Shown: positions 5,127-62,444, counted from the first letter of the stretch. The stretch is DNA of 64,000 nt from an uncultured virus (IMG/VR IMGVR_UViG_3300042882_001870) (IMGVR_UViG_3300042882_001870); one strand, 5' to 3'. Notes: generated from the sequence alone by a model not told the origin. Numbers and translations: made by a program.

Positions 5127-5136
5127 ATGTAATAAC

Positions 5137-5164: not shown

Positions 5165-5175
5165 AAGGAAAAATT

Positions 5176-5403: not shown

Positions 5404-5984
5404 TGAATGGAAATGATGCTGCTAATTTATATAATGCTATAAAATTACATTTCACTTCTGAAAAATATAATGCTATAACCTATAGGTTTAAGACCAAATC
5501 TAAATTCGTACCAGAAAATCAATTTTTTATATTCCAAAAACTTGGAAAAATGTATGGTGACGATTTAATTCATTATTACGTCTCAAATTTATCAGAAAAC
5601 CCCAAACTTTGGGTGATGGATTTATTATCTGACGATTGCGAAACCAGATATAAAAGTTGGAAAAAACGAAACGATTCTCTTTCTTATGTTTATAAAAACG
5701 AAATAGGAACTTTATTGGATGAGTATCCTTTAAACGAATTGATACTTGTTAAGGGAACGTATCCGTTGTTGATGGTAAAAACTATGCAAGAAATCGTAAG
5801 TTTGGATACTTTACTTTTGACTGATTCTATATTACAATTTTTTAATGTCTGGAATATGAAAATAAAAGAAAGAATAGTTTGGGAACCTTTTAGGATGAAA
5901 TGTGATAAGTATAGATCGTTTATGAATATAGATCTCCCAAAGTTTAAGAATATATTGAAAGAGGAGGTAAAATGTCGTAGCTAA
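5403..5984 (+). CDS. 59: Helicase loader gp59
   Basis: YNAIKLHFT...YNAITY, FFIFQKL, W...RMKCDKYRSF; synteny. Confidence 0.85.
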   Translation: MNGNDAANLYNAIKLHFTSEKYNAITYRFKTKSKFVPENQFFIFQKLGKMYGDDLIHYYVSNLSENPKLWVMDLLSDDCETRYKSWKKRNDSLSYVYKNEIGTLLDEYPLNELILVKGTYPLLMVKTMQEIVSLDTLLLTDSILQFFNVWNMKIKERIVWEPFRMKCDKYRSFMNIDLPKFKNILKEEVKCRS

Positions 5985-6058
5985 ATAGTTCTATATTATG
6001 ATTATTTGGATAAGATTGTTTTTAAGTTGTATTAAGTTTGTATAAAGAGGTAAAAAAT

Positions 6059-33865: not shown

Positions 33866-34096
33866 ATGTTAGTAAAAACTGAGGAAGGAAACTTTATTAG
33901 GGATACAGAATCTATGGCGCTTCTTAATACTGATAGAAGCGCCAGAGAAGAATATTTCATGAAAGCGAAAATGTTACATATACAAAAGACAGAAATTGCT
34001 AATATAAATAATGAGATAGATTCGTTAAAAAACGACATAGGTGATATTAAATCTATGCTAATTCAATTAATATCGGATAAAACTAATGGCAAATAA
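33866..34096 (+). CDS. Small coiled-coil virion protein
   Basis: FIRD.ES.ALLNTD...EID.LKNDI.DIKSML; usual position after VrlC-like genes. Confidence 0.7.
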   Translation: MLVKTEEGNFIRDTESMALLNTDRSAREEYFMKAKMLHIQKTEIANINNEIDSLKNDIGDIKSMLIQLISDKTNGK

Positions 34097-37000
34097 TATA
34101 ACCAATATCTATTTCTCTAATACTTTCGGTGATTTAGTAAGAACCGCAAATAACCTAGTAAACGCTTGGCAATATTTGGGGTTTTATGATTGGGATAAAC
34201 CTTCTGGAACTTTTTCTATATCAAGTTCTGGAACTGGGTTTCTTTCCAATACGATATCAGTATTTTCTAGAGAAACTAGGGTAGAAGGTGTTGGCAGTAG
34301 TTTATACGTCCAAAATAATGCTGAAGTGGGGAAAACTCTATCTCTCACAGATAGAGCGAATAACGTAACGTTGTATTCGAACGGAACTTCAATATTTTCT
34401 GGTGGATATCAAAATTATGCTTCTTACTTAACCGGAATTGGTTATGAAAATGTTAACAATAGTTACGGTATAGTTACTCTTGCTAAATCTCTATTTGCCA
34501 ATAGCGTAGATATTCTAGAAACAGCCAATGTAAATTTAATACAAGCAAACAATCAAATAATTTATTACAATTTATCTGGGAATACTGCACAATTTTCTGC
34601 GAACGTTACAGTTGGAAATTTGGTAAGTAATAATTTTATATATGCTGCAAATAATATTTCTACTAATAGAAATTTATTTGTGTCTGTAAATTCTCATGTT
34701 ATAGGTTTATCTTATACCGATAGATTGCAGGCAAATACTTCTGCAAATACTAGATATCTTTCTGTAACTGATGACGCCTTTGTAGATTACTTGCAAGCGA
34801 ATACAAATTTACAAACAGGGGTTGCTGTTGCAAATACGAGAGTCGTTACTGGTATTGTTCAAGCGAATAATACTGTTATTGCTAATACAGTTACTGCTAA
34901 CTCAATAGTTACTTCGCCAACATTACATGGTAGTAGTAACGTATTCAGCGGATATGTACAAGCTAATACCAGAATCGTTACTGGTATTGTTCAAGCAAAT
35001 AATACCGTTATTGCTAATACCGTTTCCGCCAACTCTTTGGTTACTACTCCAACGTTGCATGGTAGCAGTAACGTATTCACCGATTATGTTCAAGCTAATA
35101 CGAGAGTTGTTACAGGTATAGTTCAAGCTAATACTAACATATTTACTGCAACAATCTCTGCTAATAGTTCTATAGTTACTCCTACAGTTCAAGCTTCTTC
35201 GAACGTTTATACAGGATTTCTTAAAGCAAATAATTTAATTGTTACTGATGTTATTGAATCTCAATCTAGAGTTATAACAGATACTGCTTTAGCTAATACT
35301 AGAATAATTACAGCGACTTTACAATCTAATAATTCTATACTATCAAACGACATTTTAGCTAACACTAGAGTAGTTACTGGTATTGTTCAAGCGAACACCC
35401 ACATATATACCGACTACGCTCAAGCTAACACTAGAGTAGTTACTGGTATTGTTCAAGCTAATACTAACGTAATAACTAATGATGTTTTAGCAAATACTAG
35501 AGTTGTTGCAGGATTCGTTCAAGCAAACAATACCGTAATATCTAATACTATTTCTGCTAATACTGTTGTTACTTCTCCTACTTTACATGGTAGTAGTAAT
35601 GTATTTTCTGGATATGTTCAGGCTAATACTAGAGTTGTAACAGGTATTGTTCAGGCAAATAATATAGTTCATTCTAATACTGTTTCTGCTAATACTGTTG
35701 TTACTTCTCCTACTTTACATGGTAGTAGTAATGTATTCTCTGGATATATTCAGGCTAATACTAGAGTTGTCACTGAAACTGTTCAATCTAATACTAATGT
35801 AATAACTAATGATGTTTTAGCAAATACTAGAGTTGTCACTGAAACTGTTCAATCTAATACTAATGTAATAACTAATGATGTTTTAGCAAATACTAGAGTT
35901 GTGACAGGTATTGTCCAAGCTAATACTAATGTAATAACTAATGATGTTTTAGCAAATACTAGAGTTGTGACAGGTATTGTCCAAGCTAATACTAGAGTTG
36001 TCACTGAAACTGTTCAATCTAATACTAATGTAATAACTAATACTGTTTCAGCTAATTCATTAGTTACTTCTCCTACTTTACACGGTAGTAGTAACGTATT
36101 TACTGCGATTTTGCAAGCAAATAGTGCAGCAAACACTCAAAACCTATCAGTAACTCAGAGAATATTTACAAATGATTTTATATCTAATACTAACATTTTA
36201 GTAGTAAATAATGCAAATACTACCAATTTATACGCATCAAATCTAGTTCAAGCTAATAGTGTAGGATATCTAGATAACAGCCAAAATCCATCTGTATATA
36301 ATGTATATTCAAGAGAAGCACTATTCAATAATGCTTCGATAGTTTCAAACATGGTTGTTGGAGGAGACTTAAAAGTTTTAGGGGCTACTCAGTATGATGG
36401 TAAATCAATAAGATTAAGTGCTAACAGCCCTTCTTGGTGGACCAACACCATTCCTGCAGAACTGATTGTTAATAGAAAATTAGATGAGGCAAATGGTATA
36501 TGGTATTCTGCAAACTCTGACGCAGCAATATCTTGGTCCGATCTATCTTTAAGATGGAGAGCAGTCGATGTTCCTAATTCTACCGCCAACAGTAAAATTT
36601 ATACTAATTTATTGCTAGAGTTAGATATTGCTGATAATCTAAATGAAACTAGTTCCGTAAGAGTTCCTTCTTCTAGAGTACATTCTCTAACAAGAACACA
36701 CGCAAATTCTGCATTCTTAAATTCTAATTCTGCTTATACACATGCAAATTCTGTTTATACACACGCAAATTCAGCAATAACTATAGGGACAACGCCAGTA
36801 TATTTAAATAGAACTAATACAGTTTTTGGTGGTATATCAACATTGTCGGTAACAGGAACAACATTATCTAACTTTGTTGTTGCAAACACTAATGTAATTT
36901 CTCCAATAGTTGTTTCAAACAGCTTACAAGCAAACAATTTTGCTAATACCCAAAATCTTTCTGTAACCCAAACAATATTTACTAGAGATTTTCGAGCAAA

Positions 37001-42771: not shown

Positions 42772-43776
42772 GTGGCGAACACAGTAATTCAATTAAAGAA
42801 ATCTATAGTACCTGGAAATGTTCCTAGTAGTTTAGAAAGCGGCGAAATAGCGATTAATACCGCTGACGGTATTTTATTCTATAAAGATCCTTCTAATGTT
42901 ATAAGAACCGTAAGAACAGATACCACAACAAACGCATATTCTGTTCTAAATGTAAATTCTTCATTATTAATTGCAACATCCAATTCTGATATTTTATCTA
43001 TAGACTCTACGGGAGCAATAACATTAACTCCAGATTCTGTTAATGATAAATTTACTATTGGAGTAAAATCCGGAACAGTTTTTGAAGAGGGTGTTGTTCA
43101 ATTATACGATGGAGTTGATTCGAATTCTATTGTGTTAGTAGCAACAGCAAACGCATTAAACGCTGTCTATAACTTAGCAAATTTAGCATTTAACAGTTCT
43201 GGATCTGGTCCTACATCAACAAACTTAGCGTATCAAGAATTCACAGCCGCAAATAATCAAACAGAATTTTCCATTACAAATGGATATAATATAGGTAAAA
43301 TTAAAGTATTTGTAAATGGTGTACTTTTAAATTCTTCCGACTATACGGCAACAAATGGAACATCTATAATATTATCGTCTCCAGCACCTTTAGGTGACGA
43401 CGTTTCAATACAAAAATGGTATAACGATGTAAATGTTGCAAATTCTTATAGTTTAATATATGGAAATATTGATTCGAATAATATAATAACTACGACAAAT
43501 AGCGCAAATCAAGTATTGGATTTATTTTCAACCGCGTTATATAGATCCGTGAAATATCAAATACAAGTCACAAGTTCGACAAGTTATCAAATAAGTGAAT
43601 TATTGTTGATTCATGATGGAACCACTTCTTATATTACAGAATATGGTTTAATTACAACAAATGGCGTATTAATGAGTTATGATACAGACGTTTCCGGAGG
43701 ATCTGTGAGATTATTGATATCTCCTACCAACAATAGCAATAGTATTAAATTCACAAAAACCTCAATTGTAGTATAA
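42772..43776 (+). CDS. Fibre-associated structural protein
   Basis: GTG start; MANTVIQLKKS...GEIAINTADG N-module, VFVNGVLL...DY, C-terminal YRSVKYQIQV...HDG module. Confidence 0.7.
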   Translation: MANTVIQLKKSIVPGNVPSSLESGEIAINTADGILFYKDPSNVIRTVRTDTTTNAYSVLNVNSSLLIATSNSDILSIDSTGAITLTPDSVNDKFTIGVKSGTVFEEGVVQLYDGVDSNSIVLVATANALNAVYNLANLAFNSSGSGPTSTNLAYQEFTAANNQTEFSITNGYNIGKIKVFVNGVLLNSSDYTATNGTSIILSSPAPLGDDVSIQKWYNDVNVANSYSLIYGNIDSNNIITTTNSANQVLDLFSTALYRSVKYQIQVTSSTSYQISELLLIHDGTTSYITEYGLITTNGVLMSYDTDVSGGSVRLLISPTNNSNSIKFTKTSIVV

Positions 43777-47636: not shown

Positions 47637-50006
47637 ATGGCAACTGCATATAATAGTAAACTTGTTACTGATAATTTGGTATTATGTATAGATGCTGCTA
47701 ATCCAAAAAGTTATCCAGGAACTGGAAATAATTGGTTTAATTTAGTAAAAGGCAATCGTTCAGAAACTATATCCGGAGAAACCACTACAAATTTAATGTA
47801 TTCTTCCGGAACTTTTGTTGGGTCTATTGGAACATTAACGGGTTCTTTTTCAGTGACAACTGTAGAGGCAAATAGTAAATATCGCGTTCAGTGTAACACT
47901 AGTGGGCTAATTAGAATATCAATTCCTAATGGTTTGTTAGTAAACAACCAAACATATACATTATCATACAAATATAAAGTCATTTCTGGATTAACCAACT
48001 TTTTAATAAACGATTTTTGTGATGTTAATGTTGGCGACAGATTAATTATAGATACAGGCGATTATATTTTTGCTTCAGCAACGGCGAAAAGAATTACTTA
48101 TGATTCGACATATAGATTTTTTGATACACCAACATTTCAAGTTGGTGATATTATAGATATTTGGGATATACAAGTAGAACAAAAAACGTATCCGACTGTT
48201 TTTGTAAATGGTATAAGATCCTCTGCAACATCAAATCAAATTTTAACTGGCGGAAATCAAAATTCAGATTTAATCAATGGTCCATCATACCAATCTCAAG
48301 GGGTAATTGTGTTCGATGGCGTTGATGATTACGTTAAACAAAACCCTATGGCGTTTAAATCAGGAAGTGGGTGGACTCTATCGTGTTGGATAAGTCCTGT
48401 ATTTAATTCCACTAAAATAGGAGCTTCTGTATTTTATGCTGTTGAAGGTAATTATCTAGGATACCCTTGTTCTGTCCCACTAACAACTCAAACGGATACT
48501 ACATATATAACACCTAAAAGCTCAATAGGTAGCACTTTTTATATTTGTTCTAACTATGTAACCAATTTTGTTGGTTCAGAAAGAATCCCTAAAATTTTTA
48601 AGATGAATTCTATTTTCACAGCGGTCGATCAAGGATTTAATACAGGTTCTGTAGGATACCTATCCACTCCAGTTCACATAACAGCATCTACATATTATTC
48701 TGGGAAAATATATGTATGCGAAAACCTTAGCCAATATAGTAAATATGGAAAAATAGGATTCAAACGATATAATTCTGATGGATCGTTAGATACTGGTTTC
48801 GGAACATCTACTTCTGGATTTAATTTTTCTACGGCATTTTCCGCAGAAGACAGTTCAGGAAATATTTATGTTGTTGGCTCCTTTACTTCTTATAACGGAA
48901 CCGCAGCAAACCGAATTATTAAATTAAACACTGACGGTTCAATAGATACTTCTTTTGTTTATGGTACTGGGTTTAATAATGTAGTAACAGCAATTTACAT
49001 AGATCCAATTAATGGAGGCATATATGTTATAGGAAATTTTACTTCTTATAACGGAACCGCAGCAAACCGAATTATTAAATTAACCTCTACTGGGTCGATA
49101 GATGCTTCTTTTGTTTATGGTACTGGGTTTAATGATCAAGTCCTTTGTATAGAGTTTGACGAAAACGGAGATTTATATGTTGGGGGAGGGTTCACTACAT
49201 ATAATGGAACGGCAGTAAATCGCATGGTTAAATTAACCTCTACTGGGTCGATAGATGCTTCTTTTGTTTATGGTACTGGGTTTAATGGTGTTGTTAGATC
49301 AATATCATACAGTTATGACTTTTCATGGTTATATGTTGGGGGAGCGTTTACTACATATAACGGAACCGCAGCAAACCGAATAATTACATTAAACACTGAC
49401 GGGTCAATAGAAACTTCTTTTGTTTATGGTACTGGGTTTGACGGTGCTGTGCTTTCTATATTAGCAGATAGTTCAGGTTTGTTATATGTTGGTGGCTCAT
49501 TCACTACATATCAAGGCAGTGCTGTAAGTAGATTCGTAGGATTAGACATATATGATGGGACTTTTGTAACAGACATATTTGGTCTTACTTCTGATTTTGA
49601 ATCTTGTGTAAATCTATCTACAAATTTTTATAATATCAGATATTTAGATGGGTTTGTATTTGCGTGGGTTAACAAAACACCTGTAGACTTAACTATTATC
49701 GGAGCATCGCAAACAATTTTAACAGCCAATGAATTATATGACATTTTTGACGGGAATACCACTATAAATTTAGTGGAATCTATGGATACTAATTCTACCT
49801 ATAAAGCATATTTAAACGGACAATTAGTATGTGAAATTCCAAATGTAGAAAATTCTGGTATTCTTTTATATAATTTGTTTAATGACATTTCAACGTCATC
49901 TAAATTTCAAGGGAAAGCTTCTAATATTTCTGTATACAGCAAAGCATTATCCGCCACAGAAATTCAACAAAACTTCAACGCTACAAGGAGCAGATATGGA
50001 ATATAA
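47637..50006 (+). CDS. LamG/concanavalin-A-like protein with inserted beta-propeller (delta-60-type) repeats
   Basis: LVLCIDAANPKSYPG N-terminus, IYVVGSFTSYNGT..NRIIKLN.DGSID.SF repeats, EIQQNFNA.R.RYGI C-terminus. Confidence 0.75.
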   Translation: MATAYNSKLVTDNLVLCIDAANPKSYPGTGNNWFNLVKGNRSETISGETTTNLMYSSGTFVGSIGTLTGSFSVTTVEANSKYRVQCNTSGLIRISIPNGLLVNNQTYTLSYKYKVISGLTNFLINDFCDVNVGDRLIIDTGDYIFASATAKRITYDSTYRFFDTPTFQVGDIIDIWDIQVEQKTYPTVFVNGIRSSATSNQILTGGNQNSDLINGPSYQSQGVIVFDGVDDYVKQNPMAFKSGSGWTLSCWISPVFNSTKIGASVFYAVEGNYLGYPCSVPLTTQTDTTYITPKSSIGSTFYICSNYVTNFVGSERIPKIFKMNSIFTAVDQGFNTGSVGYLSTPVHITASTYYSGKIYVCENLSQYSKYGKIGFKRYNSDGSLDTGFGTSTSGFNFSTAFSAEDSSGNIYVVGSFTSYNGTAANRIIKLNTDGSIDTSFVYGTGFNNVVTAIYIDPINGGIYVIGNFTSYNGTAANRIIKLTSTGSIDASFVYGTGFNDQVLCIEFDENGDLYVGGGFTTYNGTAVNRMVKLTSTGSIDASFVYGTGFNGVVRSISYSYDFSWLYVGGAFTTYNGTAANRIITLNTDGSIETSFVYGTGFDGAVLSILADSSGLLYVGGSFTTYQGSAVSRFVGLDIYDGTFVTDIFGLTSDFESCVNLSTNFYNIRYLDGFVFAWVNKTPVDLTIIGASQTILTANELYDIFDGNTTINLVESMDTNSTYKAYLNGQLVCEIPNVENSGILLYNLFNDISTSSKFQGKASNISVYSKALSATEIQQNFNATRSRYGI
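48760..49560 (+). repeat. About 54-aa propeller repeats with near-identical DNA blocks (tataacggaaccgcagcaaaccgaa; tcttttgtttatggtactgggttt)
   Basis: 4-5 copies seen directly. Confidence 0.85.
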
Positions 50007-50250
50007 TGATAGAAATTTTATAATCTTTCCAACTTCGGAATTATCAAAAGTTGATTTTAGTCAAGTATTAGAAACTTCTGCCGAAACGGTTAGACGTTCT
50101 GTGGATGGTTCCAAAACGTTTGTTAAATGGGATGGAGAACAGCCAGAATTTGTTTCTACTTTGGAGAATACAGAAGGTCCGTATACTTACGAAGAAATAT
50201 TAGAAATATTAAATGGATTAGAATGGACTGCTCCAATGGAGGAAATGTAA
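49996..50250 (+). CDS. Small conserved phage protein
   Basis: GGAG RBS before ATG 49996; VDFSQV.ETS..TVRRS.DG.KTFVKW...YTYEEIL. Confidence 0.7.
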   Translation: MEYNDRNFIIFPTSELSKVDFSQVLETSAETVRRSVDGSKTFVKWDGEQPEFVSTLENTEGPYTYEEILEILNGLEWTAPMEEM

Positions 50251-50988
50251 GTGAGTTTGGGTCACGGAGCAAGTATTGTTACTAATGGATTAGTTTTATG
50301 TTTAGATGCTGCTAATCCAAAAAGTTATCCTGGATCAGGTGCTGTTTGGTATGATTTGAGTGGAAATGGTAATCACGCTTCTTTAGTAAATGGACCAGTT
50401 TATTCTACAGAAAATAATGGCAAATTTGTATTAGACGGAATAAATGATTATGTAGAAACGATTAATCCTCTAAATTTATCAACAACCAATGCGGTAACAG
50501 TTTTATTTTCAGTAAAAGTATTATCCTATGGGACTTCTCCAAAAGTTCTATATGAATTAGGTCCAAATTTTAACAGTTATACCGATTGTTTTGTAGCATC
50601 ATTTTCTGATAATTCTGTTGGAGCGAATTATGATATTTTTGCTAGTGTTAGAGGAAATGTTGGATATAATATAGGAGTATATTCTAAAACTTTATTAAAC
50701 GATTCCAATTGGCATTCTAATATTATAATACACGACACTTCACAAACTTCCAAAGAAAATCTTATATACAGCAACGGTGTTATAAAAGACGAAATATCTA
50801 ACCCCCTTTCTGGATATGCTAATAATACTAATAATTTCGGTAACAGAAAATTTTATATAGGTTGTAGGGGAGGAGCTAGTTTGTTTGGCAATATTGAAAT
50901 ATCGAGTGTTATGGCGTATAACAGAGCATTATCCGCAGCAGAAATTCAACAAAATTTTAACGCTTCTCGCAATCGCTTCGGGATATAA
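50251..50988 (+). CDS. LamG/concanavalin-A-like lectin-fold protein
   Basis: GLVLCLDAANPKSYPGSG..WYDLSGNGN, YNRALS..EIQQNFNA; paralogue of 47637. Confidence 0.8.
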   Translation: MSLGHGASIVTNGLVLCLDAANPKSYPGSGAVWYDLSGNGNHASLVNGPVYSTENNGKFVLDGINDYVETINPLNLSTTNAVTVLFSVKVLSYGTSPKVLYELGPNFNSYTDCFVASFSDNSVGANYDIFASVRGNVGYNIGVYSKTLLNDSNWHSNIIIHDTSQTSKENLIYSNGVIKDEISNPLSGYANNTNNFGNRKFYIGCRGGASLFGNIEISSVMAYNRALSAAEIQQNFNASRNRFGI

Positions 50989-50991
50989 ATA
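50984..50991 (+). promoter_or_regulatory. Late promoter heading the collagen/modification unit
   Basis: TATAAATA about 30 nt upstream of 51022; the next intergenic late consensus is at 60993. Confidence 0.7.
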
Positions 50992-51021
50992 GTTAAATAA
51001 CAACTCCTTAGAGAATACCAA

Positions 51022-51642
51022 ATGGCATTAAACGAACAAAATATAGTAATTCAACCTAATGTTGGTATAGCAAATACTAACCCAAAAATTACGTTTTCCG
51101 CAGCAGACGCATCAACAAATGCTAAGAATATTGTTCTTAATGTATACCCAACTTCAAACGGAACACTTTCTTTTGAAGGTAACACCGGACAATTATTCTC
51201 TATCACAGACTCAATGTCCGGAACAATATTCTCTGTTAATGATATCTCTGGTATACCTTCTATAGAAGTTCTTGATACTGGATTAGTAAAACTCGCTCAA
51301 TATGGTGGCGAGGTTCAAATCGGACCTTCAACAGTTTTAATTTCGGAAAATTATACTACCACAACCACAAATCAAATTACACTAGACAGCTTTCCCGCAG
51401 CAACATATAGAACAGCAACTTATGAAGTGCAAATGACTTCATCTACAAATTATCATACAATAACACTAAAACTAATACATAACGGCACAACAGTTTATCT
51501 CGCTCAATATGGAGAAATATTCACAAATGCTTCTCTAGGAACATTTGATGCTACAATTACTTCCGGTAATATGAATTTATTATTTACTCCAACCAATGCT
51601 ACTACCGTAGTAAAATTAACAAGACAACTAATCTTGGTATAA
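51022..51642 (+). CDS. Fibre-associated structural protein
   Basis: LSFEG..GQLFSITD...IFSVNDISG.PSIEV; C-module paralogous to that of 42772. Confidence 0.7.
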   Translation: MALNEQNIVIQPNVGIANTNPKITFSAADASTNAKNIVLNVYPTSNGTLSFEGNTGQLFSITDSMSGTIFSVNDISGIPSIEVLDTGLVKLAQYGGEVQIGPSTVLISENYTTTTTNQITLDSFPAATYRTATYEVQMTSSTNYHTITLKLIHNGTTVYLAQYGEIFTNASLGTFDATITSGNMNLLFTPTNATTVVKLTRQLILV

Positions 51643-51643
51643 A

Positions 51644-53332
51644 ATGGCAACAAATAAACCCTTTGAAATAAAAAACGGATTAATTGTTGGGGATACTCTT
51701 GTCGCAAATTCAACTGGTCATTGGGTAGGTCCATCAACAAATATAACCGGAGATCAAGGATTTCAAGGAAATATTGGGATAACTGGAAATGTTGGATTTA
51801 CTGGAATAGCAGGATTCCAAGGTAGACAAGGAGTACAAGGTTCTACTGGTCCTCAAGGCGTACAAGGTGCTTTGGGTGCTACTGGTAATATTGGAGTTCA
51901 GGGTGCTATCGGAATAGCAGGATTTCAAGGTAGGCAGGGCGTTCAAGGTTCTACTGGTCCTCAAGGCGTACAAGGCGTGGTTGGTGCTACTGGAAATGCT
52001 GGAGTTCAGGGCGCTATCGGAATATCAGGATTTCAAGGTAGACAAGGAATACAAGGTTCTACTGGTCCTCAAGGCGTTCAGGGAGCAGTTGGTGCTACTG
52101 GAAATAGTGGAATAGCAGGATTCCAAGGCAGACAAGGGTTTCAAGGCACACAAGGTCCACAGGGACCACAAGGAGTTCAGGGAGCAGTTGGTGCTACTGG
52201 TAATGCTGGTGTGCAAGGTGCTATTGGAATAGCAGGATTTCAAGGTAGACAAGGAATACAAGGTTCTACTGGACCACAAGGAGCACAAGGCGCTGTAGGT
52301 GCTACTGGTAATGTTGGTGTGCAAGGTGCTATTGGAATAGCAGGATTTCAAGGCAGACAAGGGTTTCAAGGTTCTACTGGTCCACAAGGAGCACAAGGCG
52401 CTGTAGGTGCTACTGGTAATGCTGGAATAGCAGGATTTCAAGGAAGACAAGGATTCCAAGGCGCACAAGGACCACAAGGACCACAAGGCGTTCAAGGCGC
52501 TGTTGGTGCTACTGGTAATACTGGAGTTCAGGGTGCTATTGGAATAGCAGGATTCCAAGGTAGACAAGGAGTCCAAGGTCCACAGGGACCACAAGGTGTA
52601 CAAGGTGCTGTTGGCGCTACTGGACCGCAAGGAGTTCAAGGGACAGTTGGAATAGCAGGATTTCAAGGTAGACAAGGAGTCCAAGGTCCACAGGGACCAC
52701 AAGGCGTACAGGGAGCAGTTGGCGCCACTGGTCCTCAAGGGGTTGCTGGAATAGCAGGATTCCAAGGCAGACAAGGATTCCAAGGCGCACAAGGTCCGCA
52801 AGGAGCACAAGGAGCACAAGGCGCTGTAGGTGCTACTGGTCCTCAAGGAGTTGCTGGAATAGCAGGATTCCAAGGCAGACAAGGATTCCAAGGAGCAAAT
52901 TTAATAATTCCTGCCAATAATCTTAGTACATTAGGAGTAAATGCTGCACTTGGCGGAACTGGAGAAATACGAGCATCTGGAAATATCATAGCAGCATACT
53001 CAGATCAAAGATTAAAGAAAAATATAAACAAAATTGAAAATTGTTTAGAAAAAGTATTAAGTATAAGTGGAATTTATTTTACTCAAAATAAGTTAGCAGA
53101 AAAGTTTGGATATAACGATTATAGTAAAAAAATAGGATTGATAGCACAGCAAATAAAACCTTTTGCTCCTGAAATAGTTAAACCTGCTCCTTTTGATACG
53201 GATTCCGATGGAAATAGCATTTCTGGGGAAAATTACATAACAGTACAATATGAAAAATTAATTCCAATAATAGTAGAAGCTATAAAAGAACAACAAAAGC
53301 AAATTAAAGAACTTTTAACATTAAGAAACTAA
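51644..53332 (+). CDS. Collagen-like fibre protein 1 with peptidase S74 chaperone
   Basis: 128 uninterrupted Gly-X-Y triplets (residues 36-419); [10 protein letters not shown]...GLIAQ...APFD...YEKLIP. Confidence 0.9.
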
Positions 53333-53336
53333 TCAG

Positions 53337-55046
53337 ATGGCAGAACAATCTAAACTAATAATAAAAAATGGATTAGTTGTTGGAAATACTTCAGTTATTT
53401 CCAACAATTCTGTTTGGATTGCTTCTACAACGAACATAAAAGGTCCGCAAGGACCACAAGGATTTCAAGGCGTTCAAGGATTCCAAGGACCACAAGGAGC
53501 ACAAGGACCACAAGGGTCTCAAGGAATTGCGGGAGTTACAGGACCACAAGGCATACAAGGGGTTGTTGGTAGACAAGGGTTCCAAGGTCCACAAGGATTT
53601 CAAGGAGCGCAAGGACCACAGGGAGCACAAGGTGCTGTCGGTGCTACTGGACCCCAAGGAGTTCAAGGCGCTGCAAGTTCTATTGCAGGGTTCCAAGGTC
53701 CACAAGGGTTTCAAGGCGCTCAAGGTCCACAAGGTGCACAAGGTGCTGTCGGTGCTACTGGTCCACAAGGAGTTCAAGGAGCAATCGGCGTAACAGGAGT
53801 CCAAGGAGTCCAAGGTCCACAGGGACCACAAGGTGCACAAGGTGCAGTTGGTGCTACTGGAAACGCTGGAATTCAAGGAGCAGTTGGCATATCTGGATTC
53901 CAAGGTAGACAAGGAGTCCAAGGAGCGCAAGGACCACAGGGAGCACAAGGTGCTGTCGGTGCTACTGGACCCCAAGGAGTTCAAGGCGCTGCAAGTTCTA
54001 TTGCAGGATTTCAAGGCAGACAAGGGTTTCAAGGCGCACAAGGTCCACAGGGCGCACAAGGAGCAGTTGGTATTACTGGTCCTCAAGGAGTTCAAGGAGC
54101 AATCGGCGTAACAGGAGTCCAAGGAGTCCAAGGTCCACAGGGACCACAAGGTGCACAAGGTGCAGTTGGTGCTACTGGACCACAAGGAGTTCAAGGTGCT
54201 GCAAGTTCTATTGCAGGGTTCCAAGGTCCACAAGGATTTCAAGGAGCGCAAGGACCACAGGGAGCACAAGGTGCTGTCGGTGCTACTGGACCACAAGGAG
54301 TTCAAGGCGCTGCAAGTTCTATTGCAGGATTTCAAGGCAGACAAGGAGTCCAAGGTCCACAAGGTCCACAGGGCGCACAAGGAGCAGTTGGCGTTACTGG
54401 ACCACAAGGAGTTCAAGGTGCTGCAAGTTCTATTGCAGGATTTCAAGGCAGACAAGGAGTCCAAGGTCCACAGGGACCACAAGGTGCACAAGGTGCAGTT
54501 GGCGTTACTGGACCACAAGGAGTTCAAGGAGCAGTTGGAATAGCAGGATTCCAAGGTAGACAAGGAGTCCAAGGTCCACAAGGTCCGCAGGGCGTTCAAG
54601 GGATATCTAATGTTTTGCAAACATCAGTAACTGCGTTAGGAGTTGGAACCCCAGCAGGACCAACAGGAGAAATAAGAGCAACCGGAAACATAACTTCGTA
54701 TTATTCTGACATAAGGTTAAAAGATAATATAGAATCTATAAAAAATGCTAGTGAAAAATTATATCAATTAAATGGAATTTTTTATAAACAAAATAAGTTT
54801 GCAGAAACCTTTGGATATAAAGATTATAGCAAACAAATAGGAGTTATAGCACAAGAAGTTCAAAAAATTATACCAGAAGCTGTTGCATTAGCACCATTTG
54901 ATATTGATGAAAATCACAATAGCATCACAGGTTTAAATTTATTAACGGTTAATTATGAAAAATTAATTCCATTAATAATAGAAACTATAAAAGAACAACA
55001 AAAAGAAATAGATTTATTAATAAAAGAAATAAAATATGGCAGCTAA
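53337..55046 (+). CDS. Collagen-like fibre protein 2 with peptidase S74 chaperone
   Basis: Gly-X-Y residues 36-424 with five GAASSIA interruptions; [10 protein letters not shown]...GVIAQEV. Confidence 0.9.
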
Positions 55047-56718
55047 TAATAATTTCGTTGTAAAAAATGGCATATCTATAAATCTAAATGAAATAATTTC
55101 ATCAGAAGGCATTTGGACTGGTCCCGCTTCAAGCTATTCCGGATCACAAGGACCACAAGGAGCACAAGGACCACAAGGCGCTCAGGGTGCTGTGGGTGCT
55201 GCTGGTCCACAAGGAGTTCAAGGAGTAGCAGGATTCCAAGGTCCACAAGGATTTCAAGGAGCGCAAGGTCCACAAGGTCCACAAGGCGCTCAAGGGGCAG
55301 TTGGTGCTACTGGTCCACAAGGCATACAAGGGGTGGCAGGGTTCCAAGGTCCACAAGGATTCCAAGGCGCTCAAGGTCCACAAGGTCCACAAGGCGCTCA
55401 AGGCGCAGTTGGTGCTATTGGACCACAGGGCATTCAAGGGGTAGCAGGATTTCAAGGTCCACAAGGATTTCAAGGCGCTCAAGGCGCTCAGGGTGCTGTC
55501 GGTGCTACTGGTCCTCAAGGAGTACAAGGTGCTGCAAGTTCGATTGCGGGGTTCCAAGGTCCACAAGGATTCCAAGGCGCTCAAGGTCAACAAGGACCAC
55601 AAGGCGCTCAAGGCGCAGTTGGTGCTATTGGACCACAGGGCATTCAAGGGGTAGCAGGATTTCAAGGTCCACAAGGATTTCAAGGAGCGCAAGGTCCACA
55701 AGGTCCACAAGGCGCTCAAGGGGCAGTTGGCGTTACCGGACCACAAGGAGTTCAAGGGGTGGCAGGGTTCCAAGGTCCACAAGGATTTCAAGGTGCTCAA
55801 GGCGCTCAGGGTGCTGTCGGTGCTACTGGTCCTCAAGGAGTACAAGGTGCTGCAAGTTCGATTGCGGGGTTCCAAGGTAGACAAGGATTTCAAGGCGCTC
55901 AAGGTCCACAAGGACCACAAGGCGCTCAAGGCGCTGTAGGTGCTACTGGTCCTCAAGGAGTTGCTGGAATAGCAGGATTCCAAGGTAGACAAGGATTCCA
56001 AGGCGCTCAAGGTCCACAGGGCGCTCAAGGAGCACAAGGCGCTGTAGGTGCTACTGGTCCTCAAGGAGTTGCTGGAATAGCAGGATTCCAAGGTAGGCAA
56101 GGATTCCAAGGCGCTCAAGGTCCACAGGGAGCACAGGGGGCAGTTGGTGTTACTGGACCGCAAGGAGTTCAAGGAGCGGCTAGTTCAATTGCAGGATTTC
56201 AAGGCAGACAAGGAGTTCAAGGTCCACAGGGTCCACAGGGAGCACAGGGGGCAGTTGGTGCTACTGGTCCTCAAGGAGTACAAGGAGCGGCTAGCAATGT
56301 GGTAACTGAAGTTACAGCACTAGGAGTTAATACTATAGCAGGAACAACAGGAGAAATAAGAGCAACTGGACAAATTACTGCATATTATTCTGATAAAAGA
56401 TTAAAACAAGTTTTAGGAAATGTTGACAATTGTTTAGAAAAGATAAGTAAAATACATGGTGTATATTACGAACAAAACGAATTAGCTAATTCATTTGGAT
56501 ATAAAGACTCTTCAAGACAAATAGGATTTATAGCACAAGAAATACAAGAAGTGCTACCAGAAGCAGTAAAAATTGCCCCTTTTGATTCTAATAAATATGG
56601 ACATAGTATTTCTGGAGAAAAATATTTAACCGTACTATACTCAAAAATAGTACCGTTATTAATAGAAGCATTAAAAGAACAGAAAATACAGATAGATGAA
56701 CTAAAAACAAAAAATTGA
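55036..56718 (+). CDS. Collagen-like fibre protein 3 with peptidase S74 chaperone
   Basis: Gly-X-Y residues 36-419 with three GAASSIA interruptions; YSDKRLK...GFIAQEI. Confidence 0.9.
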
Positions 56719-56726
56719 GGAATATT

Positions 56727-57299
56727 ATGAAAGGTGAATGGTGTTATTTTAAATCATATTTTGATAAAGATACTTGCGAAAAAATAATCAGAGATGTTCA
56801 ATCCATTCCATCACAAGATGCTCTTGTTGGTAATATCGATGCTTTCGCTGATTATAAAAATAGAAGAAGTAAAATAAAATTTATTCATAGTTCAAATTGG
56901 AGATTTGCGTATATATTTGATGCATTATGGAAAGCAGCAATAAGTGCAAATAATGATTTTTTTGACATACACATTACTAGATTAAATTTCATTCAATTCG
57001 CAGAATATAGTCACGAAGACCAAGGAGAATATAAAAACCATCACGACGTTTTTTGGTTAAACAATGATCCCGTTTATCATAGAAAACTTTCTTGTGTAAT
57101 CCAACTATCAGACTCTACTGAATATGAAGGTGGAGATTTTGAGTTAGTAGATGTATCAACATATCCTGATGCTTCTGAGATTAGGCAACAAGGATCGACT
57201 ATATTTTTTCCTTCATTTTTTACACATAGAGCAAATCCAGTAATAAGAGGAACTAGATATAGTATTGCTGCATGGTTTGAAGGTCCGAAATGGAGATAA
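56727..57299 (+). CDS. 2OG-Fe(II) oxygenase (prolyl-hydroxylase/PKHD-like)
   Basis: HHD...RKLS...YEGGDF...FPSF..HR..PV..GTRYSI..W; GAGGA RBS. Confidence 0.88.
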   Translation: MKGEWCYFKSYFDKDTCEKIIRDVQSIPSQDALVGNIDAFADYKNRRSKIKFIHSSNWRFAYIFDALWKAAISANNDFFDIHITRLNFIQFAEYSHEDQGEYKNHHDVFWLNNDPVYHRKLSCVIQLSDSTEYEGGDFELVDVSTYPDASEIRQQGSTIFFPSFFTHRANPVIRGTRYSIAAWFEGPKWR

Positions 57300-57300
57300 T

Positions 57301-58023
57301 ATGCACCCAACCATACATTATAATGAACCGTTTGATTACTACATTATAGATGATTTTTTAGAACCATCTATCGCAAAAAAGATATCAGAAGAATTTATCC
57401 CATTTGAATCCACACATTGGTTCGATTATAATAATCCATTAGAAATAAAAAAAACTTTAAACAATTGGTATCATTTTCCAGAAACCACTTATAAGTTTTT
57501 TTCTTATCTAAATTCAAAAGAATTCGTAGAAATAATTCAAAATATAACAAAAACAAATAATCTATATACTGATATCGGATTACATGGTGCTGGCTGGCAC
57601 ATTCATGGTAACGGTGGGAAATTGAATGTACATCTAGATTATTCAATTCACCCAAAATTAAAATTACAAAGAAAATATAATTTTATAATATATCTATCAC
57701 AGGAATGGAATCCAAAATGGGGAGGTAATTTAGAATTTTGGTCACACGATTTTCTAAACAAAAAACCAAAAGAAAAAATTGCCCAAGTGGATTGTATATT
57801 CAATAGAGCAGTAATTTTTGACACTACCAAAAATTCTTGGCATGGGTTTAACGATCCCATAACTTGCCCAAATAATACATATAGAAAAAGTATTGCTTGT
57901 TATTACCTAACTGACCCAGAAGAAATCACAGAGGAACGATACAGAGCATTATATTCAGCATCAAAATCTCAAGAGAATGATAGAAACATTGAACAATTGA
58001 TTAAAAATAGAAGTAAACTATGA
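57301..58023 (+). CDS. 2OG-Fe(II) oxygenase (proline-hydroxylase-like)
   Basis: LHGAG.H, LNVHLD, W...WGGNLEFW, FNRAVIF, SWHG, RKSIACYY. Confidence 0.85.
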   Translation: MHPTIHYNEPFDYYIIDDFLEPSIAKKISEEFIPFESTHWFDYNNPLEIKKTLNNWYHFPETTYKFFSYLNSKEFVEIIQNITKTNNLYTDIGLHGAGWHIHGNGGKLNVHLDYSIHPKLKLQRKYNFIIYLSQEWNPKWGGNLEFWSHDFLNKKPKEKIAQVDCIFNRAVIFDTTKNSWHGFNDPITCPNNTYRKSIACYYLTDPEEITEERYRALYSASKSQENDRNIEQLIKNRSKL

Positions 58024-59738
58024 ATAAAAAATGTAAAATTGTTATGATTACCATGTTTAAGAATGAAGCAAGATCCATAGAAAGAATGCTAAATTCTTGT
58101 TTACCTTTTGTAGATTACTATGTTCTTCAGAACAACGGATCGACAGACGGTTCCGATCAAATAGTAAAAGATTTCTTGATTAATAACGAGTTATCCGGAA
58201 CTTTATATGATGTAGAAGAAGGTTGGGTTGGATTTGGATGGAATAGAGATCATTTAATTCAAACATGTCAAGATATTGATCATGGATGTGATTGGATTTT
58301 AAAGATGGATTGCGACGAAGTTTTGGAGATTGATGAAGATTTTGACTGGGATTTAATATCAGATACTTCTATCCAAGCGTTCCACATTCCAGCGGTAAGT
58401 GGGAGTTGTGTATATTACAGAGCATGGATGTGGAATGCAAAACTTCCTTGGAGATTTAATCATGATACTTGTCATGAAACAATTTACTGCGAAATTCCAG
58501 AAATTGATAAAAATTTTATATGTAAGGATTTACCTAAATCATTTAGACAAGTTGGATATAATGAAGGGCAAAGTTGGTCGGTTCCAACAAAATTTATAAC
58601 AGATTCTCTAATATTAGAAGAAAAAATGATTAGAGAAAACACTATTCATAGTGATATATATCATTTTTGGTATATTGGAAAAAGTTATGCTGACGCATAC
58701 CCTTCAACCGCATTTCCTCTTGGAAACAATCAACAAAAAGAGTATGCTAGAAGGTGCATCTATTATTTTACAGAATATTTAAATTTGATGCACGATTTTG
58801 ATAAGACCAAAAAAGCAAAGTTTGTAGACGAAACTTCTTACATGTCACTAATTTTAATGGCAGAGGCATATATATTCTTAAATAAAGAAGACAACGCAAT
58901 AGAGTGTTATATTCTTGCAGAATCTTTTGCTCCAAAAAGAAATGATCATCTTTTTGGATTAGCAAGAATTTATAAACGTTTGAAGCAATATGAAGAAATG
59001 TTACAAATCACTTCTGTAATGATTAACCCAGAAAGAAAAAACCCTTTCCCAGAATATTGTAATTTTATAGATTCTTCTTTATATATCAATGAAGAAAATA
59101 ATGTCGTAGAAGAACTTCATAATTTTGCATTATCACATAATACAAAAGAACAACATATTCCATTACCATTTTATATAAATTTAAATAAAGATAAAAATTT
59201 ATTTGTAGTTGATAATTTTTATACCAATCCAGATGATGTCAGAGATTTTGCATTAAATTTTGTTGAATATAAAGAAGATTTAAATTGGTATAAAGGGTTA
59301 AGATCTACAGTAACATATAGACCAGATGGTATAAAAGAAGCATTTGAAGAAATAATAGGAAAAAAGATTTATAATTTCGAAGAACACGGATTTAATGGAG
59401 TTTTTCAGATAACAAGCGCAAAAGATCCCCAAGTATATCATTATGATGCACAAAAATGGGCAGCAATGATATATTTAACCCCAAATTCTCCGCTAGAAAG
59501 CGGAACAAGAACCCATAGATCCAAATTAAACGGAACAAAACACGCATCAGAACCAAACGTTGATTTTGCATTTAATGGCAATTTCTATGACAGCACTAAA
59601 TTTGAAATTATTGATAATGTGGGGAATATATACAATAGATTAGTAATAATGGATGCCCAGAATATACATTCTGCGGGTCCATATTTTGGCTCTGCTATTC
59701 ATGATAGTAGATTAACTCATTTATTTTTCTTCGATTAA
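58020..59738 (+). CDS. Fusion: GT2-like glycosyltransferase + TPR-like helices + C-terminal 2OG-Fe(II) oxygenase-like domain
   Basis: MFKNE...GSTDG...FGWNR...MDCDE (DxD); C-terminal VVDNFY.NPD..R, HYD...WAAMIYL, YNRLVI...HSA...RLTHLFF. Confidence 0.75.
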   Translation: MNKKCKIVMITMFKNEARSIERMLNSCLPFVDYYVLQNNGSTDGSDQIVKDFLINNELSGTLYDVEEGWVGFGWNRDHLIQTCQDIDHGCDWILKMDCDEVLEIDEDFDWDLISDTSIQAFHIPAVSGSCVYYRAWMWNAKLPWRFNHDTCHETIYCEIPEIDKNFICKDLPKSFRQVGYNEGQSWSVPTKFITDSLILEEKMIRENTIHSDIYHFWYIGKSYADAYPSTAFPLGNNQQKEYARRCIYYFTEYLNLMHDFDKTKKAKFVDETSYMSLILMAEAYIFLNKEDNAIECYILAESFAPKRNDHLFGLARIYKRLKQYEEMLQITSVMINPERKNPFPEYCNFIDSSLYINEENNVVEELHNFALSHNTKEQHIPLPFYINLNKDKNLFVVDNFYTNPDDVRDFALNFVEYKEDLNWYKGLRSTVTYRPDGIKEAFEEIIGKKIYNFEEHGFNGVFQITSAKDPQVYHYDAQKWAAMIYLTPNSPLESGTRTHRSKLNGTKHASEPNVDFAFNGNFYDSTKFEIIDNVGNIYNRLVIMDAQNIHSAGPYFGSAIHDSRLTHLFFFD

Positions 59739-59740
59739 TT

Positions 59741-60997
59741 ATGAAATTTAGCATTATAACCCCAGAACATAATAAAAATAATCCGTATTTGATGGAATTG
59801 TTCGAATCCATAGAAAACCAAACTTATGAAAATTGGGAATGGGTAATATTATTAAATAATGGTTGCGAATTCGAAGACCTTCCAGAACAAATTTTATACC
59901 ATGATAAAGTAAATGTATACAAACTAGAAGAAACCAATTCAAATATTGGATTTATAAAAAATAAAGCATTTCATCTTGGGTCCGGAGATGTTTTAGTAGA
60001 AGTTGATCATGATGATATATTAATAGAAAATTGTTTAGAAAAATTATACGAAGTATATCAAGATGAAAACATGGGATTCGTATATAGCGATAATGCCGTC
60101 TTACATATGACCGATGAATTTTCCCCATATGACGCAAATCAAGGGTGGGAATATTCTATTTATAATTGGAAAGGTCGAGATTTAATTTCTATGAAAAGTT
60201 TCGAACCATCTTCTCAAAGTTTAGGTTATATTTGGTATGCTCCAGATCATGTCAGATCTTGGAGGTCTAATGTCTATAAAGAAATTGGAGGACACAATCC
60301 AGAATTATCAGTATGCGATGATCATGAATTATGTATTAGAACATATCTACACACTAAAATGAAAAGAATTCCGGAAGTTCTTTATATCTATAGAATTACC
60401 GGGGAAAATACTTGGTTGGAAAGAAATCAAGAAATACAACAAAAAACAATAGAATTATTCAATAATTATATTCAACTTTTAGCAGAAAAAGATTGCGAAG
60501 AAAAAGGATTATTGAAAATTGATTTGGGAGGGGGTTTAAATCCGTATAAAGATTATAAAACCGTTGATATCACAGAATCTGCGGATTTTCAATACGATTT
60601 AAATGAAGGGATACCGTTACCAGATAATAGCGTAGGAGTTATCAATGCCAGTCATATATTAGAACATTTAAAAGATCCTATCAAATCTATGAGCGAAATT
60701 CATAGGGTGTTATGTCATGGTGGATGGGCTTTTATAGAAATTCCAAGCACGGATGGAAGAGGAGCATTCCAAGACCCCACACATGTAAGTTTCTGGAACG
60801 AAAATAGTTTTTTATATTATACCGATAAATATCTTGCTAATTTTATAAATAATAAATATATAAGATTTCAAGAATATTATAAACAAACATATTTTCCAAA
60901 TGAATGGTTACAACAAATAAATGTTTGTGTTACTTCCGCATATTTAACAGTTATTAAAGACGATTCTATCCGATACCCCGGATTTTTAAAAATATAA
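59741..60997 (+). CDS. Fusion: GT2 glycosyltransferase + class I SAM methyltransferase
   Basis: FSIITP, QTYENWEWVIL, EVDHDD, IGG..PEL..CDD; C-terminal IDLGGG, SHILEHL, EIHRVL..GG, QDPTH. Confidence 0.85.
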   Translation: MKFSIITPEHNKNNPYLMELFESIENQTYENWEWVILLNNGCEFEDLPEQILYHDKVNVYKLEETNSNIGFIKNKAFHLGSGDVLVEVDHDDILIENCLEKLYEVYQDENMGFVYSDNAVLHMTDEFSPYDANQGWEYSIYNWKGRDLISMKSFEPSSQSLGYIWYAPDHVRSWRSNVYKEIGGHNPELSVCDDHELCIRTYLHTKMKRIPEVLYIYRITGENTWLERNQEIQQKTIELFNNYIQLLAEKDCEEKGLLKIDLGGGLNPYKDYKTVDITESADFQYDLNEGIPLPDNSVGVINASHILEHLKDPIKSMSEIHRVLCHGGWAFIEIPSTDGRGAFQDPTHVSFWNENSFLYYTDKYLANFINNKYIRFQEYYKQTYFPNEWLQQINVCVTSAYLTVIKDDSIRYPGFLKI

Positions 60998-61490: not shown

Positions 61491-62444
61491 ATGACAATGG
61501 TAGCGAGTGGATATATTGAATTAGGTCCAAACGCAGCAGCAGCTACACCAAACACCTCAATTGGAACAGAGTTAAAAAGAACTGCATATGCGTCAACAAA
61601 CTTAACAGAAACAGATTGTAGATATTTAGGTGGAATCAACACAGGACAAATAGGGTTTTCTAATTTTTATTCAAAATATGTGATACAAGGACAAACTTTT
61701 GCAACTAGCACCAGTGGAAATTGGACAGTGCCAACAGGAGTTTATTATGTCAGCATATTATGTATTGGCGCTGGCGGCGGAGGTGCAGCGCTTTCTGGAA
61801 GCACCACTTATTCTGGAGGCGGAGGTGCATTATCATATACAAATAACATACCAGTAACACCAGGAGAAGTTTTATCATATGTTGCAGCACCTATAACCGC
61901 AAGACAAGCGCAAGGAGGAACGTCTTCTGTTTCTAGGGGGGCAACTGTTCTTGTAAGTGCTGCTGGAGGAAGCCAATATGCAACAGGAGGTCAAGCTTCT
62001 GCTGGAGTTGGATCTGTTAAATATTCTGGAGGAAATGGGAATTCTTATACAGGTATAGGATCTGCTGGCGGTGGAGGTGCAGCCGGATATTCTGGAGTTG
62101 GAGGAACCGGAGGAAACCCATCCACACAAGCGGGAACTGCTGGATCTGGAGGAGGTGGCGGAGGTGGCGGAGGGTCGTCTTCATTCAGTACTGGTGGAGG
62201 CGGAGGAGGAGTAGGGAATATCGGAGAAGGACCAAGTGGTGCTGCTAGTGGGACAAACGGAGGAGCAGGAAAGGGCGGTTCCTATGGAACAGATGGAGTT
62301 GGTGGATTTCTTTTAGGTGGTGCTGGTGGAGGATATGGTGGAGGCGGTGGAAGTGATACAACAGGAACCGGTGGTGCTGGTCTGGTAAGGTTTATGTGGG
62401 GAGTAAACAGATATTACCCATCAACAAATACTGGAGTATTATAA
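61491..62444 (+). CDS. Glycine-rich adhesin-like protein
   Basis: WTVP.GV..VSILCIGAGGGG followed by many poly-Gly motifs; N-module ending GQIGFSNFYSK. Confidence 0.7.
   Translation: MTMVASGYIELGPNAAAATPNTSIGTELKRTAYASTNLTETDCRYLGGINTGQIGFSNFYSKYVIQGQTFATSTSGNWTVPTGVYYVSILCIGAGGGGAALSGSTTYSGGGGALSYTNNIPVTPGEVLSYVAAPITARQAQGGTSSVSRGATVLVSAAGGSQYATGGQASAGVGSVKYSGGNGNSYTGIGSAGGGGAAGYSGVGGTGGNPSTQAGTAGSGGGGGGGGGSSSFSTGGGGGGVGNIGEGPSGAASGTNGGAGKGGSYGTDGVGGFLLGGAGGGYGGGGGSDTTGTGGAGLVRFMWGVNRYYPSTNTGVL

Follow-up and report, generated by a model that had tools for sequence, protein, structure and literature searches.

Three tandem collagen-like genes of matched helix length in an uncultured T4-like virus, candidate strands of one heterotrimeric fibre

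The subject of this study is a set of three tandem collagen-like genes in an uncultured freshwater virus (IMG/VR IMGVR_UViG_3300042882_001870). The window, i.e., the whole 64,000-nt stretch of DNA analysed here, belongs to a virus record of 73.7 kb with about 33% G+C and encodes T4-type proteins of the baseplate, hub and fibres, with PHROG matches to baseplate wedge, hub and fibre families at positions 7006-47635. The three genes (hereafter the trio) lie at the end of its tail-fibre module and match the tail-fibre families phrog_6320 and phrog_5073, largely through their collagen repeat. Each product combines a short head, a long Gly-X-Y collagen domain, a non-collagen link and a C-terminal Peptidase_S74 (S74) domain. 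We refer to the chains as alpha, beta and gamma. Their features, all on the plus strand and counted from the first letter of the window, are as follows:

51644..53332, plus strand, alpha-type chain gene, 562 aa; Pfam Collagen (PF01391) 205 bits, Peptidase_S74 (PF13884) 38.3 bits; alpha orthogroup in the tree described below
51644..51748, plus strand, alpha head, residues 1-35 (KNG at 10-12, W27)
51749..52900, plus strand, alpha collagen domain, residues 36-419, 384 aa, 128 unbroken Gly-X-Y triplets
52901..52999, plus strand, alpha link, 33 aa, predicted mature C-terminal tip, ending IIAAY ahead of the cleavage Ser
53000..53329, plus strand, alpha S74 intramolecular chaperone with the SDQRLK Ser-Lys dyad and a predicted C-terminal coiled-coil helix (beginning AIKEQQ); Pfam match at residues 453-512
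53337..55046, plus strand, beta-type chain gene, 569 aa; Collagen 177 bits, Peptidase_S74 at residues 457-516, 53.4 bits; beta clade, support 100/98
53337-53441 head, 53442-54608 collagen domain, 54609-54704 link and 54705-55043 S74 domain of beta, plus strand
55036..56718, plus strand, gamma-type chain gene, 560 aa; Collagen 192 bits, Peptidase_S74 at residues 452-512, 48.9 bits; gamma clade, support 100/98
55036-55140 head, 55141-56292 collagen domain, 56293-56388 link and 56389-56715 S74 domain of gamma, plus strand

All Pfam scores exceed the respective cut-offs of 27.2 (Collagen) and 22 bits (Peptidase_S74). The gamma gene shares its first 11 nt with the end of the beta gene and its last 4 nt with the gene that follows. 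A sequence-only reading of this DNA had described a Gly-X-Y region that starts at residue 36 of each protein after a shared head and spans 384, 389 and 384 aa, or 128, 128 and 127 triplets once 0, 5 and 3 insertions are removed; reading the N-terminal sequences and recounting the repeats gave the same figures. The beta collagen domain (residues 36-424) holds 123 triplets and five SSIA breaks (in GAASSIAG), and that of gamma (residues 36-419) 124 triplets and three SSIA breaks. Scoring each SSIA break as one triplet step plus one extra residue yields the 128/128/127 triplet-equivalents (TE) used below. The heads of the window chains are 26-43% identical at the amino acid level, the links measure 32-33 aa, and S74 begins at an SDxRLK motif. 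That the internal block order differs and that the S74 domains have diverged was also borne out: every gene has its own tandem repeat (alpha 108 nt, 8.8 copies with 77% matches; beta 111 nt; gamma 108/318 nt; copies 74-87% alike), and link plus S74 are about 52% identical in amino acids and 66-67% in nucleotides. In the collagen domains, Pro takes 28% of X positions, Gln 49% and Thr 19% of Y positions, and Asp, Glu and Lys each remain below 0.5%. The head motif of the trio did not occur in other open reading frames (ORFs) of the window. A GFQGRQ motif is evenly spaced near the C-terminal end of the three window chains, a pattern that a rough estimate would expect by chance about once in eight.

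To place the trio among relatives, loci were fetched around 403 relatives of the C-terminal domain (78 loci retained), around 320 relatives of the downstream oxygenase described below (80 loci) and around gamma-type C-terminal domains in viral contigs (527 relatives, 72 loci) and metagenome contigs (442 relatives, 80 loci); a scan of viral contigs with the beta-type domain (581 relatives, 68 loci) yielded no new alpha-beta pairs. Retaining ORFs with a collagen run and an SDxRxK motif that is followed by another 85-130 residues gave 262 ORFs over 308 sources, 235 of them with a link of at most 45 aa. These make up 123 tandem arrays, of which 45 contain three genes, 22 two and 56 a single gene; no array is larger than three, and the two- and one-gene arrays are mostly cut by contig ends. 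After removal of arrays whose S74 sequence was identical to that of a larger array, 68 arrays remained (21 of them three-gene). L107 and L149, in which the first gene is cut by the contig end, were then dropped to leave 19 complete non-redundant trios, window included. Under a locus-end criterion, the complete arrays comprise 18 trios, two doublets (L154 and L187) and four singles.

For all chains, TE were counted by taking each break as round(length/3) steps and setting aside inserts of at least 20 aa. The counts for the 19 trios are as follows:

Window 128/128/127; L006 170/170/169; L091 69/69/69; L115 99/99/99
L128 126/126/126; L141 127/127/126; L143 202/202/203; L236 138/138/139
L118 85/85/86; L116 155/156/155; L095 166/166/167; L097 135/136/137
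L102 187/188/186; L120 150/151/148; L245 29/30/28 (counted, and the least secure because its type assignment is weak, with BLAST margins of 7-19 bits)
L092 179/183/183; L093 169/170/173; L106 175/182/181; L094 61/76/63

The match of lengths within genomes is beyond chance. The spread has a median of 1 TE, being at most 1 in 11/19 trios and at most 2 in 14/19, and between genomes TE ranges seven-fold, from 28 to 203. Chain lengths correlate at r 0.997-0.999, with an intraclass correlation coefficient of 0.998, and in 100,000 shuffles of lengths among the 19 genomes a spread this small never arose (mean 2.5 in the data vs 76.6 after shuffling). The sequence-only reading had argued that matched lengths in repetitive DNA imply selection, had proposed comparing paralogues in related genomes, and had named independent length variation, together with chains that form only homotrimers, as the outcome that would speak against its reading. 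What the comparison returned is co-variation across that seven-fold range, so that paralogue lengths do not vary independently, and the argument for selection is further strengthened by matched trios whose collagen domains share few 6-mers, described below. It is the step count that is held most closely. Raw residue numbers match more loosely (r 0.996-0.997), and TE spread is smaller than that of residues/3 in 15 genomes, equal in three and larger in one. Complete pairs in arrays cut by contig ends behave alike (L107 115/115, L149 86/87, L007 100/99 and L016 143/142).

Lengths also change jointly. Across eight path-disjoint genome pairs of a concatenated tree, the contrasts correlate at r 0.989-0.996. 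The chains differ by +42/+42/+42 between the window and L006, by -64/-64/-64 between L143 and L236, and by -66/-67/-68 between L097 and L091; further paired changes are +13/+17/+16, -19/-19/-25, -12/-6/-5 and -38/-23/-36. Helix length is readily mutable, L102 and L106 differing by 5-12 steps over a tree path of 0.12.

Several side observations concern lengths outside the 19 trios. Two distant relatives (L154:10811-13324 and L187:7405-10164) carry two tandem collagen-S74 genes each, of 81/79 and 95/93 steps. In L087/L166 (one contig), the S74 sequence is identical to that of the window and gamma has 92 rather than 127 steps, one 106-aa (318-nt) super-repeat being missing; similarly, the L103 gamma chain has 168 steps vs 186 in L102. 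These differences may be real variants or assembly errors, and either would only blur the match. Twenty public runs labelled as lake-water or freshwater metagenomes (20 studies, 2016-2024) contain 77-86% of the words sampled from window 51000-57300, and unique junction pieces were letter-identical across the four runs compared. The phage lineage appears widespread and stable.

Mid-rod, non-collagen inserts of 156-179 aa occur in only one or two chains at L128:2650-4869, L093:1321-3867 and 3871-6384, and L092:3642-6314. The insert of L128 alpha is lectin-like (PA14/GLEYA), as are those of the alpha and beta chains of L093, which stand at different levels; the 173-aa insert of L092 alpha had no Pfam match. 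The L128 alpha insert of 179 aa leaves the step counts exactly equal at 126/126/126, and those of L093 remain within 4. Within one genome, the lengths of links and heads can differ by as much as about 10 aa with no offsetting change. An overall C-referenced excess of break coincidences between chains (35 vs 20.9 expected) was discarded, the large inserts of L092, L093 and L128 having been parsed as false breaks.

The three chains fall into distinct types. A maximum-likelihood tree of 51 link plus S74 pieces from the first 17 trios recovers a gamma clade and a beta clade (100/98 each), and alpha as the remainder, with 16/17 rows in a weakly supported fork (90/89) and the L143 copy just outside it. 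Every one of these 17 genomes has one alpha, one beta and one gamma, so that the triplication predates the divergence of all these phages, and on the tree alpha, beta and gamma are old orthologous types, not recent copies. The gamma gene is always third, and alpha and beta swap order in 9/19 genomes. All 37 gene junctions examined in trios lie within -17 to +6 nt; starts this close to the preceding stop are consistent with translational coupling. Many alpha and beta genes of relatives seem to begin with TTG or GTG (L or V as the first letter of the head). Tight junctions and the lack of arrays larger than three genes would fit an equimolar, obligate use of the chains, and do not discriminate between the models weighed below.

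The S74 domain is the part in which the types would be told apart. Ser, Asp, Arg and Lys of SDxRLK are invariant (22/22 alpha, 22/22 beta and 25/25 gamma chains), Leu being replaced by Met in 1/22 alpha; the mechanism of this Ser-Lys dyad in the S74/ICA domain is given in PMC8326128. A profile of 16 gamma domains matches the MyRF ICA domain (7dc3) with an E value of 7.6e-11, and the C-terminal helix of S74 aligns without gaps to MyRF alpha4, which, according to the same paper, drives trimerization as a triple coiled coil. In the heptad register taken from that source, hydrophobic residues fill positions a (120, 127, 134 and 141) and d (123 and 137), with Gln at d 130, and the helix is predicted to form a central parallel triple coiled coil. 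Identity of same-type vs different-type chains between genomes is 0.483 vs 0.461 for the heads, 0.534 vs 0.518 for the last 24 aa before the cleavage Ser, 0.60 vs 0.47 for S74 and 0.607 vs 0.418 for the last ~30 aa that make up the coiled coil. Judged from these alignments, type identity is almost confined to the S74 domain, which is predicted to be cleaved off, and peaks in the putative coiled coil. Two positions are type-invariant across alpha, beta and gamma, namely a127 (I/I/L) and e131 (Q/Q/K), in 22/22, 22/22 and 25/25 chains.

Charges in the putative coiled coil also pair between the types. Both alpha g133 and beta e'138 are charged in eight genomes, and in each of these the two charges are opposite (E-K in three, K/R-E in five); like charges are found in none of the 20 genomes with all three chains aligned; a relaxed extraction adds L007 alone, with another R-E pair. 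Alpha133-beta138 ranks first among inter-type pairs in 1356 ordered column-pair tests (pairs being counted in both orders, so that distinct tests are fewer), and this covariation is suggestive of a cross-chain contact. In addition, beta g133 is Glu or Asp in 20/20 genomes and faces gamma e'138, which is Lys in 17/20. Reversal of the chain order would create five like-charged pairs, and a hypothetical beta homotrimer would place Glu against Glu at g/e' in 9/20 genomes.

Taken together, these patterns make it somewhat probable that the three genes encode the strands of one obligate alpha-beta-gamma heterotrimeric collagen fibre. Distinct coupled genes and equal helix lengths, two features expected of a heterotrimer, are both present. 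In the proposed pathway, the tightly coupled genes would provide equal amounts of the chains, whose S74 domains, by homology to MyRF and phage ICA domains, would trimerize through the parallel C-terminal coiled coil; type-specific coiled-coil residues would pick one chain each, in the order alpha, beta, gamma. The triple helix would then nucleate C-terminally and zip toward the N terminus, as is established for collagen folding (C-to-N zipper; described in PMC11923368). The 35-aa, near-equivalent heads would meet as one anchor only if the numbers of Gly-X-Y steps are equal, so that the genes would be forced to gain or lose repeats together. Self-cleavage of S74, as the invariant Ser-x4-Lys dyad suggests, would afterwards leave a rod with a tip of about 30 aa per chain. 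The observed precision, about one step in up to 200, matches the demands of strand pairing and exceeds those of free flexible fibres. The sequence-only reading had proposed either a heterotrimer or three equal-length fibres; that pair of options stands, and the evidence leans toward the heterotrimer through step precision, the exact count kept despite an insert, type identity in the part to be discarded and alpha-beta charge compensation. The rod is estimated at about 110 nm, by arithmetic only (128 triplets x 0.86 nm). It would likely serve as an adhesive fibre on a T4-like phage, since the genes end the tail-fibre module and relatives carry lectin inserts.

Several observations weigh against a heterotrimer. 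Five of the 19 trios have a spread above 2 (L120, 3; L092 and L093, 4; L106, 7; L094, 15, from 61/76/63), and all lengths were read from repetitive DNA as assembled from short metagenomic reads; Logan contigs stop inside the collagen repeats, with no piece spanning a gene and with many joints whose sides are shorter than 35 letters. Animal heterotrimers mostly align their interruptions. In the window, coincidences between chains number 0 among the 0, 5 and 3 breaks; in insert-free genomes their sum is about 15 observed vs about 13 expected, and L102 gamma has 27 breaks vs 0 and 2 in its partner chains. The near-uncharged helices offer no electrostatic chain selection of their own, so that selection must come from the ends. 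At those ends, the swap at alpha133/beta138 amounts to one independent pair on supported branches or two on all branches, both in the expected direction, a number with which a sign test cannot reach significance, and type-specific coiled-coil residues would be needed equally by three homotrimers that do not mix. The S74 relatives in the PDB (7dc3, 6f45 and 8jov) are, we presume, all homotrimers. Prokaryotic collagen-like proteins at large are likewise described as homotrimers, with limited use for the study of heterotrimers, in PMC8968730.

Three separate homotrimers (alpha3, beta3 and gamma3) held at one common length, with the S74 types only preventing mixing, constitute the most serious rival, one that we rate as unlikely yet credible. 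Equality could then stem from equivalent docking sites with the same reach, from anchoring at both ends or from side-by-side packing. A homotrimer automatically tolerates breaks placed independently among the chains, would turn the PA14 inserts present in one or two chains into ordinary trimeric knobs, and would account for the strong differences in composition often seen between chains, as in functionally distinct fibres. A one-triplet precision, i.e., about 0.9 nm in rods of 25-175 nm and reached in 11/19 genomes, is nevertheless hard to justify for free flexible rods, and is all the odder where links and heads vary by up to ~10 aa uncompensated and where the 179-aa insert of L128 leaves the steps equal. 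Mature ends devoid of type identity would moreover make the fibres nearly equivalent, leaving the retention of three genes, one per type, in all of the first 17 genomes without an obvious cause. Compensation at alpha133-beta138 would be meaningless in the absence of alpha-beta contact, and beta3 would bring the Glu-Glu clashes at g/e' noted above.

Promiscuous assembly, in which any three chains combine into mixed homo- and heterotrimers of no fixed composition and all lengths must consequently match, is improbable in our judgement. It would be compatible with the equal step counts, with heads and tips lacking type identity, with nearly uncharged helices lacking chain-selective pairs and with the tight coupling of the genes. 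Against it, the orthogroups (gamma and beta at 100/98) and the invariant residues at 127 (I/I/L) and 131 (Q/Q/K) argue for a distinct role of each type in the trimerization module, one of each type is always kept, and the direction of the g-e' pairs agrees with a single cyclic order free of like charges, the reverse order bringing five like-charged pairs.

Equal length could lastly be a by-product of gene conversion or unequal crossing-over between tandem paralogues, with no selection on length. Some concerted evolution is indeed indicated by the sequences. Collagen domains share more 6-mers within a genome (mean 0.27) than between orthologues (0.17), most strongly in the window (0.41-0.64) and highly in L006 too, and heads seem to have been exchanged between types in some genomes (e.g., identity between the beta and gamma heads of L143 is 0.76). 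The L118 paralogues share only 0.04-0.07 of 6-mers and still count 85/85/86, and chains are also matched in L102/L106 at 0.07-0.20. L102 counts 187/188/186 with different repeat units in its three chains, that of beta being GVP GVS GFQ GVP GPT GPT and that of gamma having one extra residue, and three different units occur in L102/L106. The window paralogues likewise have separate repeat arrays, whose alignment takes 20-34 gap columns. Whole-domain conversion predicts near-identical DNA, whereas the collagen domains of the window are 65-68% identical in nucleotides, no higher than the S74 part, and partial conversion would leave totals unequalized. Because some matched trios share few 6-mers or differ in repeat units, we consider this explanation very improbable.

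Collagen-like phage fibres and S74 chaperones are already known; what is new here is a triplicated, type-specific S74 module together with a locked and co-varying helix length. The trio resembles phage S74 fibres (the S16 long tail fibre distal subunit, 6f45, and the tail fibre 8jov) and the MyRF ICA domain (7dc3) in its C-terminal S74, its Ser-x4-Lys dyad, the helix aligned to MyRF alpha4 and the placement in a tail gene module. The K1F endosialidase and the T5 L-shaped tail fibre presumably belong here as well, as fibres or spikes with a Peptidase_S74 chaperone. In known S74 examples, one gene gives a homotrimer and the domain chaperones triple beta-helices. The trio differs in that three type-specific S74 domains follow length-locked collagen, of which ~30 non-collagen residues would remain after cleavage.

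Animals provide heterotrimers with a selecting non-collagenous domain, such as the C-propeptide of type I, NC2 of type IX and NC1 of type IV collagens, and C1q, and to our knowledge mixed three-chain collagen is documented so far only in animals, where type VI is a further example. This group is covered in PMC8968730 and in the reference list of PMC11923368. The proposed removal of a terminal chain-selecting domain after folding recalls procollagen. The trio is further like animal heterotrimeric collagens in having one gene per chain and equal helix lengths. It is unlike them in lacking sequence relation, in its putative selector, a self-cleaving S74 with a coiled coil, in its unaligned breaks and missing helix charge pairs, and in that the heterotrimer is here a putative one. 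With Scl1/Scl2, BclA and the EPcl of an Escherichia coli O157 prophage, as presented in PMC8968730 and PMC3368898, the trio shares long Gly-X-Y runs without coding for hydroxyproline, Pro mainly at X, folding driven by a non-collagen trimerization domain and an annotation as tail fibre in many phages. Unlike those proteins, which are described as homotrimers, it keeps three old paralogues one-to-one with co-varying length. KGD/KGE salt-bridge triplets are typical of viral collagens according to PMC11923368, a pattern from which the Gln- and Thr-rich (in Y), almost chargeless trio collagen departs. In the literature searched, which leaves out most subscription journals, we found no report of a heterotrimeric collagen occurring naturally in prokaryotes or phages.

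Putative modifying enzymes are encoded directly downstream of the trio:

56715-57299 and 57265-58023, 2OG-FeII_Oxy_3 oxygenases (Pfam), the first overlapping the gamma gene by 4 nt
58020-59738, protein with GT2, TPR and DUF6445 domains (Pfam)
59741-60997, protein with GT2 and methyltransferase domains (Pfam)

The oxygenases weakly resemble PiuC-type and OGFOD1-type hydroxylases, and oxygenase/transferase homologues follow the trio in L006, L007, L008 and L016, loci found via the fibre itself. In L187, oxygenase and transferase genes lie upstream, not downstream, of its two collagen-S74 genes. Giant viruses presumably offer a parallel, with collagen-like genes accompanied by their own modifying enzymes such as the mimivirus L230-type hydroxylase/glycosyltransferase. 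The trio is like that system in adjoining 2OG-Fe(II) oxygenase and glycosyltransferase genes and unlike it in a practically lysine-free collagen, which makes lysyl hydroxylation unlikely. A (Gly-Pro-Thr)10 peptide becomes triple-helical only once its threonines are glycosylated, as noted in PMC11923368. With this precedent, the Thr-rich collagen and the adjoining enzymes make modification of the fibre by the downstream proteins plausible.

Other ORFs of the window touch on fibre architecture. Neither Pfam nor PHROG gave a match for a 206-aa ORF at 51022-51642, the end of which lies 1 nt ahead of the alpha gene. Over its last ~90 aa it shares 65% identity with the C terminus of a 1361-aa protein encoded immediately upstream of the L006 trio and 45% with that of window ORF 42772-43776, and a 1685-aa protein of L187 has, judged by eye, a similar end. 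This C-terminal part may act as a fibre-end or docking module common to these proteins. The ORF at 61491-62444 (317 aa, phrog_4474) contains an interrupted Gly-X-Y stretch of ~27 triplets without an S74 motif, and a 1955-aa collagen-free fibre protein at 34086-39953 ends in a fourth Peptidase_S74, whose 60.3 bits are the top score in the record. Among isolates, the closest are Pelagibacter phage HTVC008M, Synechococcus phage BUCT-ZZ01, Caulobacter phage Cr30 and the Methylophilales Melnitz phages, at 36-38% identity in the gp6 homologue. A megablast search of window 49000-60000 against GenBank phages gave no matches, and tblastn detected similarity in the collagen repeat or in S74 alone, below 60% identity, with no cultured phage found to carry the trio.

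To conclude, our analysis depicts, with slightly better than balanced confidence, a natural ABC heterotrimeric collagen outside animals in which S74 would have been triplicated and specialized as a device for chain selection and register, akin to the procollagen C-propeptide. The co-evolution of repeat number is unusually clean, three genes with different units keeping equal steps through a seven-fold change. If the heterotrimer is true, it would be the counterpart, at the level of protein length, of compensatory changes in base pairs, seen over about 20 phage lineages. It would also supply collagen engineers with three natural chains that fold in bacteria into defined ABC heterotrimers and carry a compact selector that removes itself, and would add a new fibre design to phage biology.

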